From NCBI RefSeq assembly GCF_003334385.1, contig NZ_QOWN01000010.1: 64,000 bases of DNA; one strand, given 5' to 3'. The stretch comes from Escherichia coli (GTDB lineage: Bacteria; Pseudomonadota; Gammaproteobacteria; Enterobacterales; Enterobacteriaceae). Of this stretch, positions 13,789 through 29,012 are shown in pieces. Position numbers and translations under genes: made by a program. The number at the start of each line of letters is the position of its first letter. Position 1 is the stretch's first letter. The notes under the pieces were generated by a model. It was not told the DNA's origin. It did not search any database and saw only the letters and a program-made list of their open reading frames with translations.

Positions 13789-16401
13789 ATGACTCAACAG
13801 CCACAAGCCAAATACCGTCACGATTATCGTGCGCCGGATTACCAGATTACTGATATTGACTTGACCTTTGACCTCGACGCGCAAAAGACGGTCGTTACCG
13901 CGGTCAGCCAGGCTGTCCGTCATGGTGCATCAGATGCTCCCCTTCGTCTCAACGGCGAAGACCTCAAACTGGTTTCTGTTCATATTAATGATGAGCCGTG
14001 GACCGCCTGGAAAGAAGAAGAGGGCGCACTGGTTATCAGTAATTTGCCGGAGCGTTTTACGCTTAAGATCATTAATGAAATAAGCCCGGCGGCGAATACC
14101 GCGCTGGAAGGGCTTTATCAGTCAGGCGATGCGCTTTGCACCCAGTGTGAAGCCGAAGGTTTCCGCCATATTACGTATTATCTCGACCGCCCGGACGTGC
14201 TGGCGCGTTTTACCACCAAAATTATTGCCGATAAAATCAAATATCCCTTCCTGCTTTCCAATGGTAACCGCGTTGCGCAAGGCGAACTGGAAAACGGACG
14301 CCATTGGGTACAGTGGCAGGACCCGTTCCCGAAACCGTGCTACCTGTTTGCGCTGGTGGCAGGCGACTTTGATGTACTGCGCGATACCTTTACCACGCGT
14401 TCTGGTCGCGAAGTAGCACTGGAGCTGTACGTCGATCGCGGCAACCTTGATCGCGCGCCGTGGGCGATGACCTCGCTGAAAAACTCCATGAAATGGGATG
14501 AAGAACGCTTTGGCCTGGAGTATGACCTCGACATCTATATGATCGTCGCGGTGGATTTCTTCAATATGGGCGCAATGGAGAATAAGGGGCTGAATATCTT
14601 TAACTCCAAATATGTGCTGGCCCGCACCGACACCGCCACCGACAAAGATTACCTCGATATTGAACGCGTTATCGGCCATGAATATTTCCATAACTGGACC
14701 GGTAACCGAGTGACCTGTCGCGACTGGTTCCAGCTCAGCCTGAAAGAAGGTTTAACCGTCTTCCGCGATCAGGAGTTCAGCTCTGACCTTGGTTCCCGCG
14801 CAGTTAACCGCATCAATAATGTACGCACCATGCGCGGATTGCAGTTTGCAGAAGACGCCAGCCCGATGGCGCACCCGATCCGCCCGGATATGGTCATTGA
14901 GATGAACAACTTCTACACCCTGACCGTTTACGAGAAGGGCGCGGAAGTGATTCGCATGATCCACACCCTGCTTGGCGAAGAAAACTTCCAGAAAGGGATG
15001 CAGCTTTATTTCGAGCGTCATGATGGTAGTGCAGCGACCTGTGACGACTTTGTGCAGGCGATGGAAGATGCGTCGAATGTCGATCTCTCCCATTTCCGCC
15101 GTTGGTACAGCCAGTCCGGTACACCGATTGTGACCGTCAAAGACGACTACAATCCGGAAACCGAGCAGTACACCCTGACCATCAGCCAGCGCACGCCAGC
15201 CACGCCGGATCAGGCAGAAAAACAGCCGCTGCATATTCCGTTTGCCATCGAACTGTATGATAACGAAGGCAAAGTGATCCCGTTGCAGAAAGGCGGTCAT
15301 CCGGTGAATTCCGTGCTGAACGTCACTCAGGCGGAACAGACCTTTGTCTTTGATAATGTCTACTTCCAGCCGGTGCCTGCGCTGCTGTGCGAATTCTCTG
15401 CGCCAGTGAAACTGGAATATAAGTGGAGCGATCAGCAACTGACCTTCCTGATGCGTCATGCGCGTAATGATTTCTCCCGCTGGGATGCGGCGCAAAGTTT
15501 GCTGGCAACCTACATCAAGCTGAACGTCGCGCGTCATCAGCAAGGTCAGCCGCTGTCTCTGCCGGTGCATGTGGCTGATGCTTTCCGCGCGGTACTGCTT
15601 GATGAGAAGATTGATCCAGCGCTGGCGGCAGAAATCCTGACGCTGCCTTCTGTCAATGAAATGGCTGAATTGTTCGATATCATCGACCCGATTGCTATTG
15701 CCGAAGTACGCGAAGCACTCACTCGTACTCTGGCGACTGAACTGGCGGATGAGCTACTGGCTATTTACAACGCGAATTACCAGAGCGAGTACCGTGTTGA
15801 GCATGAAGATATTGCAAAACGCACTCTGCGTAATGCCTGCCTGCGTTTCCTCGCTTTTGGTGAAACGCATCTGGCTGATGTGCTGGTGAGCAAGCAGTTC
15901 CACGAAGCAAACAATATGACTGATGCGCTGGCGGCGCTTTCTGCGGCGGTTGCCGCACAGCTGCCTTGCCGTGACGCGCTGATGCAGGAGTACGACGACA
16001 AGTGGCATCAGAACGGTCTGGTGATGGATAAATGGTTTATCCTGCAAGCCACCAGCCCGGCGGCGAATGTGCTGGAGACGGTGCGCGGCCTGTTGCAGCA
16101 TCGCTCATTTACCATGAGCAACCCGAACCGTATTCGTTCGTTGATTGGCGCGTTTGCGGGCAGCAATCCGGCAGCGTTCCATGCCGAAGATGGCAGCGGT
16201 TACCTGTTCCTGGTGGAAATGCTTACCGACCTCAACAGCCGTAACCCGCAGGTGGCTTCACGTCTGATTGAACCGCTGATTCGCCTGAAACGTTACGATG
16301 CCAAACGTCAGGAGAAAATGCGCGCGGCGCTGGAACAGTTGAAAGGGCTGGAAAATCTCTCTGGCGATCTGTACGAGAAGATAACTAAAGCACTGGCTTG
16401 A
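13789..16401 (+). CDS. pepN: Aminopeptidase N (PepN), 870 aa
   Basis: ORF 870 aa; HEYFHNWTGN zinc motif and GAMEN motif. Confidence 0.97.
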   Translation: MTQQPQAKYRHDYRAPDYQITDIDLTFDLDAQKTVVTAVSQAVRHGASDAPLRLNGEDLKLVSVHINDEPWTAWKEEEGALVISNLPERFTLKIINEISPAANTALEGLYQSGDALCTQCEAEGFRHITYYLDRPDVLARFTTKIIADKIKYPFLLSNGNRVAQGELENGRHWVQWQDPFPKPCYLFALVAGDFDVLRDTFTTRSGREVALELYVDRGNLDRAPWAMTSLKNSMKWDEERFGLEYDLDIYMIVAVDFFNMGAMENKGLNIFNSKYVLARTDTATDKDYLDIERVIGHEYFHNWTGNRVTCRDWFQLSLKEGLTVFRDQEFSSDLGSRAVNRINNVRTMRGLQFAEDASPMAHPIRPDMVIEMNNFYTLTVYEKGAEVIRMIHTLLGEENFQKGMQLYFERHDGSAATCDDFVQAMEDASNVDLSHFRRWYSQSGTPIVTVKDDYNPETEQYTLTISQRTPATPDQAEKQPLHIPFAIELYDNEGKVIPLQKGGHPVNSVLNVTQAEQTFVFDNVYFQPVPALLCEFSAPVKLEYKWSDQQLTFLMRHARNDFSRWDAAQSLLATYIKLNVARHQQGQPLSLPVHVADAFRAVLLDEKIDPALAAEILTLPSVNEMAELFDIIDPIAIAEVREALTRTLATELADELLAIYNANYQSEYRVEHEDIAKRTLRNACLRFLAFGETHLADVLVSKQFHEANNMTDALAALSAAVAAQLPCRDALMQEYDDKWHQNGLVMDKWFILQATSPAANVLETVRGLLQHRSFTMSNPNRIRSLIGAFAGSNPAAFHAEDGSGYLFLVEMLTDLNSRNPQVASRLIEPLIRLKRYDAKRQEKMRAALEQLKGLENLSGDLYEKITKALA

Positions 16402-16408
16402 TAAATAA

Positions 16409-16438
16409 CCGAATGGCGGCAATAGCGCCGCCATTCGG
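16409..16438. terminator. Hairpin between convergent pepN and ssuB
   Basis: Stem CCGAATGGCGGC/GCCGCCATTCGG; no clear U-tract on either side. Confidence 0.4.
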
Positions 16439-16443
16439 GGAAT

Positions 16444-17211
16444 TTACCCCTGTTTTCTCAGGCGAGTTTCAGATTCACCACGTTGCATCACCCGTTGCAA
16501 CACCTCCGCTTCCAGCTCCGCTAATCGCACCGACCCTAATCGACGCGGACGGGGGATATCCACTGTCAAATCCAGACCAATTTTTCCCTCTTCAATTAAC
16601 AGCACCCGGTCAGCCATCGCTACCGCTTCGCTCACATCATGCGTCACCAACAGTACGGTAAAGCCGTGCTCCTGCCAAAGTGACACAATCAAATCCTGCA
16701 TCTCGAGTCGCGTTAAGGCGTCCAGCGCCCCGAGCGGTTCATCAAGCAACAATAATCCCGGTCGATGAATCAACGCTCTTGCCAGCGCCACTCGCTGTTT
16801 CTGCCCGCCAGAAAGTGCGGCAGGCCATTCCCCTGCGCGATTCTCCAGTCCTACCGCAGCCAACGCTCGACGTGCGGCATCGCGCCACTGGCCTTTAAGG
16901 CCTAACCCAACGTTATCAATCACCGATTTCCACGGTAGCAGACGCGCATCCTGAAACATCATTCGCGTGTCTTCCTGAATTTCAGCCAGCGGTGTGGTGC
17001 CCGCTAACACATCGCCTGCGGTTGGCGTTTCCAGACCTGCCAGCAGGCGCAGCAGGGTACTTTTGCCACCACCGCTGCGGCCCACCACCGCCACAAACTG
17101 ACCTGCCGGAATATGTAAATCCAGTTGGTTCAGGACGATATTTTCCGCGTAATGTTTGCTTACTGCATTGAGCAACAATGGCGTGCCCTGGTTCAGACGA
17201 GCAGTATTCAT
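16444..17211 (-). CDS. ssuB: Aliphatic sulfonate ABC transporter ATP-binding protein SsuB, 255 aa
   Basis: ORF 255 aa; Walker [13 protein letters not shown] signature LSGGQKQRV, Walker B LLLDEP. Confidence 0.95.
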
Positions 17212-20679: not shown

Positions 20680-21035
20680 ACTCTCTCCTTATAACCAATT
20701 GTTCTTTTTTTTGTTAACATTGATAACAATTCGGTCAGTCTGTCGGAGAGACAAGAAAATTCCAAATATAAATTTTGTGTATCTTTTTCTGAAAATAAAC
20801 TAAAGAAAGGGCTTTATATATCACGCATATTTATTTATTGGATAGTCATTAGATGTTGAATCAATGAATTACTCGTTCAGTTAATATTTAAATATTCATG
20901 AAATCTATAAATTAAAGATTTGTCACTTATTGGATTTAGTATGCTTGATTTAAATGGCGGACAATTATTGTTATTATTAAGTCTAATGTCATTTAAAGGC
21001 ATTATCATATTTACGAAGAGATCAGGATGATAACG
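20680..21035. promoter_or_regulatory. AT-rich divergent control region between ssuE and elfA
   Basis: About 350 bp of strongly AT-rich DNA with A/T tracts, between the ssuE start and the elfA start. Confidence 0.5.
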
Positions 21036-21575
21036 ATGAAAAAAAGTGTATTGACGGCGTTTATAACTGTGGTATGTGCAACGTCCAGCGTTATGGCTGC
21101 TGATGATAATGCTATCACGGATGGCTCAGTAACATTTAATGGTAAAGTTATTGCTCCAGCTTGTACCCTGGTAGCTGCGACGAAAGATTCCGTGGTGACT
21201 TTGCCAGATGTTAGTGCCACGAAGTTGCAAACCAATGGTCAGGTTTCTGGCGTGCAAATTGATGTGCCAATTGAATTAAAAGATTGTGATACTACCGTAA
21301 CAAAAAATGCAACGTTCACCTTTAATGGCACTGCGGATACTACTCAGATTACAGCGTTTGCTAACCAGGCCTCATCTGATGCTGCTACAAACGTGGCCCT
21401 GCAAATGTATATGAATGATGGTACAACGGCCATCACGCCAGACACAGAAACCGGGAACATTTTGTTGCAGGATGGAGATCAGACGTTGACTTTTAAAGTT
21501 GATTATATCGCTACGGGGAAAGCGACTTCAGGTAATGTGAATGCGGTAACAAATTTCCATATTAACTATTATTAA
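21036..21575 (+). CDS. elfA: Fimbrial major subunit ElfA (YcbQ), 179 aa
   Basis: ORF 21027..21575; start chosen at MKKSVLTAFITVV with AGGA 8 nt upstream; signal peptide and the fimbrial-subunit Cys pair. Confidence 0.9.
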   Translation: MKKSVLTAFITVVCATSSVMAADDNAITDGSVTFNGKVIAPACTLVAATKDSVVTLPDVSATKLQTNGQVSGVQIDVPIELKDCDTTVTKNATFTFNGTADTTQITAFANQASSDAATNVALQMYMNDGTTAITPDTETGNILLQDGDQTLTFKVDYIATGKATSGNVNAVTNFHINYY

Positions 21576-21606
21576 TAGAACTCATTAATTGTTTTATTAA
21601 TTAGTA

Positions 21607-21643
21607 CCCCTCCAGTGTTCTGGAGGGGATATTCATATTTTTT
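21607..21643 (+). terminator. Intra-operon hairpin (partial terminator/attenuator) between elfA and elfD
   Basis: Stem CCCCTCCAG/CTGGAGGGG with loop TGTT, followed by ATATTCATATTTTTT. Confidence 0.5.
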
Positions 21644-21657
21644 AAGAGTGACTATTT

Positions 21658-22359
21658 ATGAAAACTTGCATAACAAAGGGAATTGTGACCGTAAGTTTAA
21701 CGGCAATATTACTCAGCTGCTCATCCGCATGGGCGGCAGGTAAAGGCGGGATTGGACTTGCAGCAACACGTCTTGTTTATTCAGAAGGTGAAGAGCAAAT
21801 TTCACTGGGTGTACGTAACACCAGTCTGGATGTTCCTTATCTTATTCAGTCATGGGTGATGACCCCAGATAATAAAAAATCAGCAGACTTTATTATTACA
21901 CCACCGCTATTTGTGCTGAATCCGGCAAATGAGAATCTGTTACGCATTATGTACATTGGAGCGCCGTTGGCGAAAGACAGAGAAACCCTTTTCTTCACTA
22001 GCGTACGGGCAGTCCCTTCAACAACGAAGCGGAAAGAGGGAAATACCCTGAAGATTGCCACACAAAGCGTCATCAAACTTTTCTGGCGACCAAAAGGTTT
22101 AGCGTATCCCTTAGGCGAGGCTCCGGCGAAACTGCGTTGCACTTCGTCAGCTGACATGGTTACGGTCAGTAACCCAACACCTTATTTCATTACCCTGACA
22201 GACCTGAAAATAGGTGGAAAAGTAGTTAAAAATCAAATGATTTCCCCCTTTGATAAATACCAATTTTCTCTGCCAAAGGGGGCCAAAAATAGCAGCGTAA
22301 CGTATCGAACCATCAATGACTACGGGGCGGAAACGCCGCAACTCAACTGTAAATCGTAA
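21658..22359 (+). CDS. elfD: Periplasmic fimbrial chaperone ElfD (YcbR), 233 aa
   Basis: ORF 233 aa; PapD-like chaperone sequence. Confidence 0.93.
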   Translation: MKTCITKGIVTVSLTAILLSCSSAWAAGKGGIGLAATRLVYSEGEEQISLGVRNTSLDVPYLIQSWVMTPDNKKSADFIITPPLFVLNPANENLLRIMYIGAPLAKDRETLFFTSVRAVPSTTKRKEGNTLKIATQSVIKLFWRPKGLAYPLGEAPAKLRCTSSADMVTVSNPTPYFITLTDLKIGGKVVKNQMISPFDKYQFSLPKGAKNSSVTYRTINDYGAETPQLNCKS

Positions 22360-22383
22360 GCCGTCTTCAGTTAAGAGAGCGAG

Positions 22384-26045
<3,662 letters not shown>

Positions 26046-26056
26046 CGCGTGAACGT

Positions 26057-26599
26057 ATGAAGAAAAAAACGATATTTCAGTGCGTTATCTTGTTCTTTAG
26101 CATTCTTAACATCCATGTCGGGATGGCTGGGCCTGAACAAGTTAGTATGCATATTTATGGGAATGTGGTCGATCAGGGCTGTGATGTCGCCACCAAAAGT
26201 GCATTACAAAATATTCATATTGGTGATTTTAATATCAGTGATTTTCAGGCCGCGAATACCGTAAGCACTGCTGCTGATTTGAATATCGATATCACCGGTT
26301 GTGCCGCTGGTATTACTGGCGCGGACGTCCTTTTTAGCGGCGAGGCTGACACCCTTGCGCCGACACTGCTCAAACTAACTGACACAGGCGGAAGCGGTGG
26401 TATGGCAACGGGGATTGCCGTGCAAATTCTTGATGCGCAAAGTCAGCAAGAAATCCCGCTCAATCAGGTCCAGCCTCTTACGCCCTTAAAAGCCGGGGAT
26501 AACACACTCAAATATCAACTTCGTTATAAGTCCACAAAGGCGGGAGCAACGGGCGGTAATGCGACGGCGGTTCTCTATTTTGATCTGGTTTACCAGTGA
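26057..26599 (+). CDS. ycbU: Fimbrial-like protein YcbU, 180 aa
   Basis: ORF 180 aa; signal peptide and pilin-type C-terminus. Confidence 0.9.
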   Translation: MKKKTIFQCVILFFSILNIHVGMAGPEQVSMHIYGNVVDQGCDVATKSALQNIHIGDFNISDFQAANTVSTAADLNIDITGCAAGITGADVLFSGEADTLAPTLLKLTDTGGSGGMATGIAVQILDAQSQQEIPLNQVQPLTPLKAGDNTLKYQLRYKSTKAGATGGNATAVLYFDLVYQ

Positions 26600-26606
26600 A
26601 GGAGTG

Positions 26607-27122
26607 ATGTTGAAACGGATAATCTGGATTCTGTTCTTATTGGGATTAACGTGGGGCTGTGAGCTATTTGCCCATGATGGCACGGTCAACATTAGCGGAT
26701 CGTTTCGCCGTAATACATGCGTGCTGGCACAGGATAGCAAGCAAATCAATGTGCAGTTAGGCGATGTCTCGCTGACACGTTTTTCTCATGGGAATTATGG
26801 CCCGGAGAAATCTTTCATCATTAATTTGCAGGATTGCGGAACAGATGTCAGCACGGTTGACGTCACCTTTTCAGGAACCCCCGACGGAGTGCAGAGCGAA
26901 ATGTTGTCCATTGAAAGTGGTACGGATGCAGCCAGCGGGCTGGCAATTGCGATTCTGGATGATGCGAAGATATTGATTCCGCTTAACCAGGCGAGTAAAG
27001 ACTACAGCCTACATAGCGGTAAGGTGCCATTAACTTTTTATGCGCAATTGCGACCTGTCAATAGCGATGTGCAGTCGGGTAAAGTGAATGCCAGCGCGAC
27101 ATTTGTACTTCATTATGACTAA
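26607..27122 (+). CDS. ycbV: Fimbrial-like protein YcbV, 171 aa
   Basis: ORF 26559..27122; start chosen at MLKRIIWILFLLGL (signal peptide). Confidence 0.85.
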   Translation: MLKRIIWILFLLGLTWGCELFAHDGTVNISGSFRRNTCVLAQDSKQINVQLGDVSLTRFSHGNYGPEKSFIINLQDCGTDVSTVDVTFSGTPDGVQSEMLSIESGTDAASGLAIAILDDAKILIPLNQASKDYSLHSGKVPLTFYAQLRPVNSDVQSGKVNASATFVLHYD

Positions 27123-27825
27123 TACGTGGAACAGATTGGCGCTCTTGATTTTCGCCGTTTTATCGCTGCTGGTGGCGGGTGAATTGCAGGCAGGAGTGGT
27201 GGTCGGCGGAACGCGATTTATCTTTCCGGCAGACAGAGAATCGATATCTATTTTACTGACTAATACCAGTCAGGAATCCTGGCTTATTAACAGTAAAATC
27301 AACCGCCCAACGCGTTGGGCCGGGGGGGAAGCGTCGACAGTGCCAGCACCATTACTGGCCGCTCCGCCACTTATTCTCCTGAAGCCCGGTACGACAGGCA
27401 CGTTGCGCTTGCTGAGAACGGAAAGCGACATCTTGCCTGTGGATCGCGAAACGCTATTTGAGTTAAGCATTGCCAGCGTGCCATCCGGCAAAGTTGAAAA
27501 TCAGAGCGTAAAAGTGGCGATGCGCTCGGTATTTAAACTGTTCTGGCGACCCGAAGGTTTGCCGGGCGACCCGCTGGAAGCTTATCAACAATTACGCTGG
27601 ACACGGAATTCGCAGGGTGTACAACTCACTAACCCAACGCCTTATTACATTAACCTGATTCAGGTGAGTGTAAATGGTAAAGCGTTAAGTAATGTGGGAG
27701 TTGTGCCGCCTAAAAGCCAGCGTCAGACAAGCTGGTGTCAGGCAATCGCACCGTGTCATGTCGCCTGGCGGGCGATAAATAATTACGGCGGGTTGAGTGC
27801 AAAGAAGGAGCAAAATCTGCCCTGA
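27115..27825 (+). CDS. ycbF: Fimbrial chaperone-like protein YcbF, 236 aa
   Basis: ORF 27088..27825; start chosen at MTNTWNRLALLIF; PapD-like chaperone sequence. Confidence 0.85.
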   Translation: MTNTWNRLALLIFAVLSLLVAGELQAGVVVGGTRFIFPADRESISILLTNTSQESWLINSKINRPTRWAGGEASTVPAPLLAAPPLILLKPGTTGTLRLLRTESDILPVDRETLFELSIASVPSGKVENQSVKVAMRSVFKLFWRPEGLPGDPLEAYQQLRWTRNSQGVQLTNPTPYYINLIQVSVNGKALSNVGVVPPKSQRQTSWCQAIAPCHVAWRAINNYGGLSAKKEQNLP

Positions 27826-27834
27826 AACAGGTTC

Positions 27835-27849
27835 GGAAAACGTTTGCGT
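27835..27849 (+). promoter_or_regulatory. PurR-like operator (pur box) upstream of pyrD
   Basis: GGAAAACGTTTGCGT matches 13 of 16 positions of the palindromic pur box ACGCAAACGTTTGCGT; about 90 bp upstream of the pyrD ATG. Confidence 0.5.
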
Positions 27850-27935
27850 TTTTTTTGCCGCAGGTCAATTCCCTTTTGGTCCGAACTCGCACATAATACG
27901 CCCCCGGTTTGCACACCGGGAATCCAGGAGAGTTC

Positions 27936-28946
27936 ATGTACTACCCCTTCGTTCGTAAAGCCCTTTTCCAGCTCGATCCAGAGCGCGCTCATGAGTTTAC
28001 TTTTCAGCAATTACGCCGTATTACAGGAACGCCGTTTGAAGCACTGGTGCGGCAGAAAGTGCCTGCGAAACCTGTTAACTGCATGGGCCTGACGTTTAAA
28101 AATCCGCTTGGTCTGGCAGCCGGTCTTGATAAAGACGGGGAGTGCATTGACGCGTTAGGCGCGATGGGATTTGGATCGATCGAGATCGGTACCGTCACGC
28201 CACGTCCACAGCCAGGTAATGACAAGCCGCGTCTCTTTCGTCTGGTAGATGCCGAAGGTTTGATCAACCGTATGGGCTTTAATAATCTTGGCGTTGATAA
28301 CCTCGTAGAGAACGTAAAAAAGGCCCATTATGACGGCGTCCTGGGTATTAACATCGGCAAAAATAAAGATACGCCAGTGGAGCAGGGCAAAGATGACTAT
28401 CTGATTTGTATGGAAAAAATCTATGCCTATGCGGGATATATCGCCATCAATATTTCATCGCCGAATACCCCAGGATTACGCACGCTGCAATATGGTGAAG
28501 CGCTGGATGATCTCTTAACCGCGATTAAAAATAAGCAAAATGATTTGCAAGCGATGCACCATAAATATGTGCCGATCGCAGTGAAGATCGCGCCGGATCT
28601 TTCTGAAGAAGAATTGATCCAGGTTGCCGATAGTTTAGTTCGCCATAATATTGATGGCGTTATTGCAACCAATACCACACTCGATCGTTCTCTTGTTCAG
28701 GGAATGAAAAATTGCGATCAAACCGGTGGCTTAAGTGGTCGTCCGCTTCAGTTAAAAAGCACCGAAATTATTCGCCGCTTGTCACTGGAATTAAACGGTC
28801 GCTTACCGATCATCGGTGTTGGCGGCATCGACTCGGTTATCGCTGCGCGTGAAAAGATTGCTGCGGGTGCCTCACTGGTGCAAATTTATTCTGGTTTTAT
28901 TTTTAAAGGTCCGCCGCTGATTAAAGAAATCGTTACCCATATCTAA
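27936..28946 (+). CDS. pyrD: Dihydroorotate dehydrogenase (quinone) PyrD, 336 aa
   Basis: ORF 27909..28946; start chosen at [16 protein letters not shown] (ATG at 27936). Confidence 0.96.
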
Positions 28947-28978
28947 TTATTTCTTCGAATTCCTCTTTATAAGATAAT

Positions 28979-29012
28979 CAGGGCTTTATTTTCAGCCCTG
29001 GTTGTTTTATAT
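28979..29012 (+). terminator. Rho-independent terminator after pyrD
   Basis: Stem CAGGGCT/AGCCCTG followed by GTTGTTTTATATT. Confidence 0.55.

Follow-up and report, generated by a model that had tools for sequence, protein, structure and literature searches.

The catalogued PurR operator of pyrD in Escherichia coli, its conservation in Enterobacteriaceae, and its position between the elf fimbrial island and a conserved upstream T-tract

The 16-mer CGGAAAACGTTTGCGT, which lies between ycbF and pyrD at 27834–27849 of the window (the whole 64-kb stretch of Escherichia coli DNA that was analysed), is the catalogued PurR operator of pyrD, and its assignment is established knowledge, not a new hypothesis. 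It very probably serves as an operator for modest repression of pyrD by PurR, a regulator of the LacI/GalR family. Published data show that PurR occupies the 16-mer in vivo when adenine is supplied, and that purR affects the expression of pyrD. Such control is a textbook case of purine-pyrimidine cross-regulation, and the exact site was already catalogued. The points added by the current study are that the T-run next to the box appears to be a conserved promoter element, that the spacing downstream of the box falls into two classes, and that the elf island abuts the operator. These points could guide the study of PurR repression from about -62, and they leave the overall picture unchanged.

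The binding data come from the ChIP-chip study of Cho et al. 2011 (PMC3159470), in which the PurR-bound region 1,003,618–1,004,017 was assigned to the transcription unit pyrD. The motif reported there for pyrD, at 1,003,889–1,003,904, is CGGAAAACGTTTGCGT and was bound only with adenine; the signal was among the weaker ones (log2 about 1.0) and was absent when adenine was not supplied. In the same study pyrD was counted among the ‘previously characterized’ PurR-binding promoters, and was described as directly repressed by PurR. In NC_000913.3 the 16-mer lies at 1,004,666–1,004,681, a constant offset of +777 from the older coordinates of Cho et al. The catalogued site and the box in the window are the same 16-mer at the same genomic position, with no difference in identity.

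With regard to expression, according to a review of carAB regulation PurR represses pyrC and pyrD about as strongly as purines repress carAB P1, which is three- to fourfold; the review credits the repression of pyrC and pyrD to Choi & Zalkin 1990 and Wilson & Turnbough 1990. The sources cited in RegulonDB for purR-dependent repression of pyrD include Wilson & Turnbough 1990 and Vial et al. 1993 (Salmonella). The original prediction, made from the letters of the window, had read the box as a PurR operator and had named PurR binding and a purR-dependent change of pyrD expression as the observations that would decide the matter. This reading was correct, the exact 16-mer lying under a published ChIP-chip peak and being backed by genetics, and published work had already given a positive answer for both observations.

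The sequence of CGGAAAACGTTTGCGT is that of a PurR operator, being a 16-bp imperfect palindrome with an AAACG.TTGC core and a central CG. A 13-of-16 match to the pur box had been predicted and was reproduced: compared with ACGCAAACGTTTGCGT, the 16-mer has three mismatches, all of them non-consensus bases at the outer positions 1, 2 and 4, and it is the sole match in the window at three mismatches or fewer. The predicted location, 10 nt past the ycbF stop, also held for the 15-mer GGAAAACGTTTGCGT (27835–27849), the first base of which is the 10th nucleotide after the stop. The box begins 102 nt upstream of the pyrD ATG, and thus lies in the control region of a nucleotide-metabolism gene.

A mismatch count is a weak guide to such a site, with 0.54 matches at three or fewer mismatches expected per 64 kb and at least one found in 40 of 100 shuffles. 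Since the count was not significant alone, a position weight matrix (PWM) and simulations were used instead. The matrix was built from the 27 other, ChIP-defined PurR motifs in Table 1 of Cho et al. 2011, with the pyrD site left out. On this matrix CGGAAAACGTTTGCGT scored 20.7 bits, compared to a median of 20.1 bits for the training sites, and the next independent site in the 64-kb window scored 11.1 bits. None of 200 simulated windows (first-order Markov; mean maximum 15.3 bits) reached 20.7 bits; the best single simulated window had 20.56 bits, which leaves little room above the extreme tail. The box is therefore more than a chance match by the PWM and by its conservation in 80 other species, and not by the mismatch count.

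For the analysis of conservation, the pyrD locus was taken from 80 other species of Enterobacteriaceae, which together with the window and one E. coli lacking the elf cluster (elf-less) gave 82 loci. In every one of these orthologous control regions, the best PurR-matrix site within 200 nt upstream of pyrD was located at -100 to -113 from the ATG and scored at least 12.7 bits (range 12.7 to 24.5 bits, median 20.1). The core G..A.CG.TTGC was invariant in an alignment of 32 sequences (A1), and the flank upstream of the box could not be aligned. Judged from these loci, the PurR box is shown to be under strong purifying selection. The upstream gene is ycbF, on the same strand, only in the window, in Escherichia sp. 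E1V33 and in three Pseudocitrobacter; most species have a divergent ssuE there, and five have pepN. As the upstream neighbour varies and the box stays constant, the box travels with pyrD and not with ycbF.

The spacing between the box and the block GGTCAATT was 11–13 bp in 32 loci and 21–24 bp in 50 loci, with no values between. One helical turn separates the two classes, and both are present within Citrobacter; this suggests repeated indels of about 10–11 bp, which would have left PurR facing the same side of the helix.

The gene order in the window, elfC-elfG-ycbU-ycbV-ycbF followed by pyrD, zapC and ycbX, is as in K-12. The features of the interval and of its two flanking genes are given in Table 1; the stop codon of ycbF is the TGA at 27823–27825, and the ATG of pyrD is at 27936. 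A 91-bp segment reaching from the end of ycbF into the first part of the intergenic region was 100% identical among the sampled elf-carrying E. coli genomes, and 3524 genomes matched it at 99% or more. A literature search on ycbF together with pyrD, or on the pyrD promoter, found nothing specific.

Table 1. Features of the ycbF–pyrD interval and its flanking genes (window coordinates; positions relative to the transcription start follow from +1 = 27904).
Feature	Position	Strand	Basis
ycbF, fimbrial chaperone, last gene of the elf/ycb chaperone-usher cluster	27088..27825	+	ORF list; RefSeq annotation of matching E. coli genomes and K-12 b0944
PurR operator (pur box) of pyrD, CGGAAAACGTTTGCGT	27834..27849	+	Consensus match, PWM, ChIP-chip table, conservation
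T-tract (T8 then G), about -55 to -47, directly upstream of the core promoter	27849..27857	+	A1 alignment
Conserved block GGTCAATTCCCTTTT, about -41 to -27, with weak -35 region TTCCCT 17 bp from the -10	27863..27877	+	A1; -35 inferred from spacing
PyrD leader, Rfam RF02373	27868..27941	+	cmscan, 97.9 bits against a gathering score of 47, E = 1.4e-17, full model 1–74
-10 hexamer CATAAT of the pyrD promoter	27892..27897	+	ATAAT invariant in A1
Alternative starts: C at 27903/27904, G at 27906; CTP/GTP-sensitive selection	27903..27906	+	Published rule (PMC6524683) applied to the sequence
Leader hairpin CCCGGU...ACCGGG, only in the longer C-started transcripts, lowers pyrD translation	27903..27920	+	Predicted fold; invariant in A1; PMC6524683
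Shine-Dalgarno AGGAG of pyrD	27926..27930	+	Sequence; invariant in A1
pyrD, quinone-dependent dihydroorotate dehydrogenase	27936..28946	+	ORF list; RefSeq annotation

A scan of 27300–28300 for sigma-70 consensus promoters gave no match. Because the pyrD promoter has a poor -35 region, its parts were placed from conservation and from the published start-site rule. With +1 placed at 27904 by this rule, and not by data for the window, the box extends from about -70 to -55 and is centred at about -62.5. According to a 2019 review (PMC6524683), pyrC and pyrD transcripts start at high CTP/GTP with a C located 6–7 nt past the Pribnow box, and the two extra Cs of these transcripts give rise to a 5' hairpin that reduces translation; at low CTP/GTP the start is at a G further downstream. 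In the window the leader hairpin is predicted to pair 27903–27908 with 27915–27920. The start sites, like the -10 hexamer, this hairpin and the Shine-Dalgarno sequence, were invariant across genera. What remains of the interval is taken up by the pyrD promoter and the PyrD leader, both known; the leader provides a second, pyrimidine-dependent layer of control. This layer, which depends on the start-site selection known for pyrC and pyrD and acts on translation (RF02373), is separate from PurR, and the PurR box lies outside the leader.

Weak Rfam matches over the interval to RmaA (19.7 bits against a threshold of 57) and SNORA57 (14.1 against 40) were taken as chance. The same applies to a terminator-like call on the minus strand (27922–27901), which is the reverse complement of the leader hairpin and has a poor T tail.

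A run of eight Ts had been predicted to follow the box immediately. The T8 run is present, at 27849–27856, but the box ends on the first of these Ts, so that seven lie past it; in the K-12 type the box and the T-run are thus joined through this T. In A1 (32 species) the columns T66–T68, T70, T71 and G72 were invariant. The motif TTT(T/A)TTG, mostly as T6–T8, was found in nearly all 82 loci, including those with a divergent ssuE, directly 5' of the invariant block CC.CAGGTCAATTCC. The occurrence of the T-tract in all genera, also where ssuE is divergent, marks it as an upstream promoter element of pyrD and, as far as conservation can tell, it belongs to the conserved promoter region upstream of pyrD and is no terminator tail.

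The tract is possibly UP-element-like. The UP element was reportedly described by Estrem et al. in 1998 as an A/T-rich tract at -40 to -60 with the consensus nnAAAWWTWTTTTnnAAAAnnn. The T-run at pyrD (about -55 to -48) fits only the T-rich part of the distal subsite, and there is no proximal A-tract.

Downstream of the T-tract, GGTCAATT was invariant in A1 and the subsequent CC.TTT nearly so. It was also observed that GGTCAATTCC(C)TTT (27863–27877) is invariant or nearly invariant across 32 genera/species, which is more conservation than a weak -35 region needs. This block could be the binding site of a factor, or an unusual promoter element.

Through this operator PurR, loaded with hypoxanthine or guanine, very probably represses pyrD modestly and in this way couples pyrimidine synthesis to purine supply. 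The operator is positioned upstream of the core promoter and abuts the conserved T-tract; as it lies outside the -35 and -10 elements, repression is expected to be weak. PurR may hinder upstream contacts between RNA polymerase and DNA (the alpha-CTD on the T-tract), or may bend the DNA, with no occlusion of the core promoter. That the box abuts the T-tract in the UP-element zone, and that the -35 region is poor, points to interference with upstream contacts or to unfavourable bending by PurR, and this part of the proposal is tentative and on balance rather doubtful. In 50 species the spacer is 10 bp longer and the box lies off the T-tract, so that simple occlusion of the tract would not be the whole story.

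The pyrD box shares with the pur operators of E. coli the 16-bp imperfect palindrome, the central CG, the published adenine-dependent occupancy and the modest degree of repression. Most pur operators overlap their promoters, according to the carAB review, whereas the pyrD box appears to lie upstream of the -35 region. In this respect it resembles the PurR site of carAB P1 (-128.5), which is likewise upstream and non-overlapping and gives few-fold repression of a promoter of the pyrimidine pathway. The carAB site differs in being much further upstream and in working as part of a complex with PepA, IHF and further factors, for which no counterpart is known or indicated at pyrD.

A chance pur-box-like sequence with no regulatory role has the mismatch count in its favour, and is refuted by the PWM and simulations, by the published ChIP-chip occupancy at the exact motif and by conservation in 82 of 82 loci beside unalignable flanks, which leave it a practically negligible probability. 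The original prediction had also suggested that one element could do two things, the box and T-run acting as a Rho-independent terminator in read-through RNA from elf/ycbF and thereby insulating pyrD. The palindrome AAACG/CGTTT, which was thought to fold as a short hairpin by itself, does not do so, as its two halves are contiguous (AAACGTTT) and leave no loop; the predicted hairpin needs the T-run, with (G)GAAAACG pairing with CGUUUU(UU) around a UUUG loop (GGAAAACG/UUUG/CGUUUUUU). This fold does reach -9 kcal/mol with the outer pairs (27826–27862, z = -1.26), and three further observations fit a terminator: an uninterrupted run of at least seven Ts follows the box in five of five ycbF-adjacent loci (the window, L005, L019, L023 and L034), the elf-less E. 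coli has TATTTATT in place of the uninterrupted T-run, and the ycbF–pyrD interval has no other terminator-like site. The hairpin resembles Rho-independent terminators in being a stem-loop with an overlapping T-run. It differs from them in that its inner stem has 2 G-C, 4 A-U and 2 G-U pairs, that in isolation it has only -4.3 kcal/mol (-2.3 for the 6-bp core), and that it uses up 4–6 U residues of the T8 run and leaves 2–4. A consensus terminator scan found no + strand terminator at the box or elsewhere between ycbF and pyrD, the box hairpin being passed over because of its stem with only 2 G-C pairs. When all 514 T-rich tracts in the window were ordered by the best hairpin abutting each, it ranked between 178 (strict) and 193 (generous), and the terminators of pyrD, pepN/ssuB and others in the window had G+C-rich stems and -15 to -27 kcal/mol (-23.9 for pyrD, z = -8.7). 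Moreover, a T7 run after the box was also found in five Kluyvera species and in the unclassified Enterobacteriaceae genome L075, all with a divergent ssuE upstream. The most stable of six box-plus-T hairpins folded was that of Kluyvera ascorbata (L053; -11.5 kcal/mol, z = -3.0), whereas in Escherichia sp. E1V33, the closest relative with ycbF, a T-to-C change weakens the hairpin to -5.0 kcal/mol (z = +0.87), indicating that hairpin strength does not track the need for termination. The box thus has neither a stable G+C-rich stem nor a terminator hairpin confined to where one is needed, and the T-tract, as a feature of the region upstream of pyrD, is kept in every genus. The insulator role was therefore not supported and is very unlikely, and weak incidental termination or pausing may occur at the box. 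No + strand 3' end at ycbF/pyrD was found in the possibly truncated Term-seq supplements of Adams et al. 2021; pyrD is likewise without any entry there, and hence this absence is uninformative.

Insulation would need no hairpin if PurR bound to the box stopped RNA polymerase arriving from ycbF, in a purine-dependent manner. PurR acts in this way from a downstream site at purB (He and Zalkin 1992, as cited in the carAB review), and the box, 9 nt past the stop codon, is in the path of any elf read-through. It is equally conserved, however, where no co-directional gene lies upstream, so that such a role is not needed to explain the box, and PurR is bound only weakly and only with adenine. In laboratory strains of E. 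coli the elf operon is a cryptic one, which would leave little read-through to block, and the roadblock reading is extremely unlikely. In elf-carrying E. coli lineages, where the end of the elf island and the left edge of the PurR box lie no more than 2 nt apart, the operator and T8 run might together form a purine-dependent barrier to fimbrial read-through, combining a PurR roadblock with a weak pause at the hairpin and U-tract; this has a slim chance of being correct. Modest repression of pyrD by PurR from this operator remains the preferred reading.

The elf/ycb fimbrial cluster behaves as a 7.09-kb island (window 20749–27835). It was absent in 1361 of 5426 complete E. coli genomes, in which ssuE adjoins pyrD and 69 bp of unrelated sequence stand in place of the island. 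The elf-less E. coli still has the box, as AAGAAAACGTTTGCTA, with a score of 14.6 bits. The 7-kb island thus abuts the pyrD operator without destroying it. In BLAST comparisons of elf-carrying with elf-less E. coli, homology picks up again at 27836, so that the first two bases of the PurR box fall outside it. Over the 12 bp that follow the box core there are three substitutions and one indel, and the 290 bp after these are about 99% identical. Such a divergent stretch followed by near-identity suggests that the true recombination junction may be near 27857, in which case the island may have come with its own allele of the box and T-run.

Several minor observations were made on the surrounding sequence. 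The pyrD gene has a strong intrinsic terminator with an 18-bp stem at 28968–29008. In the gap between pepN (+ strand) and the ssu operon (- strand), at about 16380–16495, there is a G+C-rich hairpin of -24 kcal/mol with the core CCGAATGGCGGCGC...GCCGCCATTCGG; it has T-rich tracts on both strands and the look of a bidirectional terminator. The supplement of Adams et al. 2021 also lists minus-strand sites antisense to ycbF (K-12 position 1,004,029; window about 27197) and to zapC (1,006,040; about 29208), the window positions being derived via the K-12 offset.

In a test stretch of 3 kb the window differed from MG1655, and it showed 99.9% identity to several other E. coli strains. In a comparison of 24975–27825 with K-12, the longest ORF for ycbF in the window begins at 27088 and encodes 245 aa, and the K-12 annotation has 711 nt (236 aa) with less overlap with ycbV. 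Two E. coli genomes (NZ_AP045777.1 and NZ_CM177011.1) carry an IS1A insertion in the stretch matching window 27400–28400; the chaperone is annotated in two parts in both, and the insertion is therefore apparently in ycbF.
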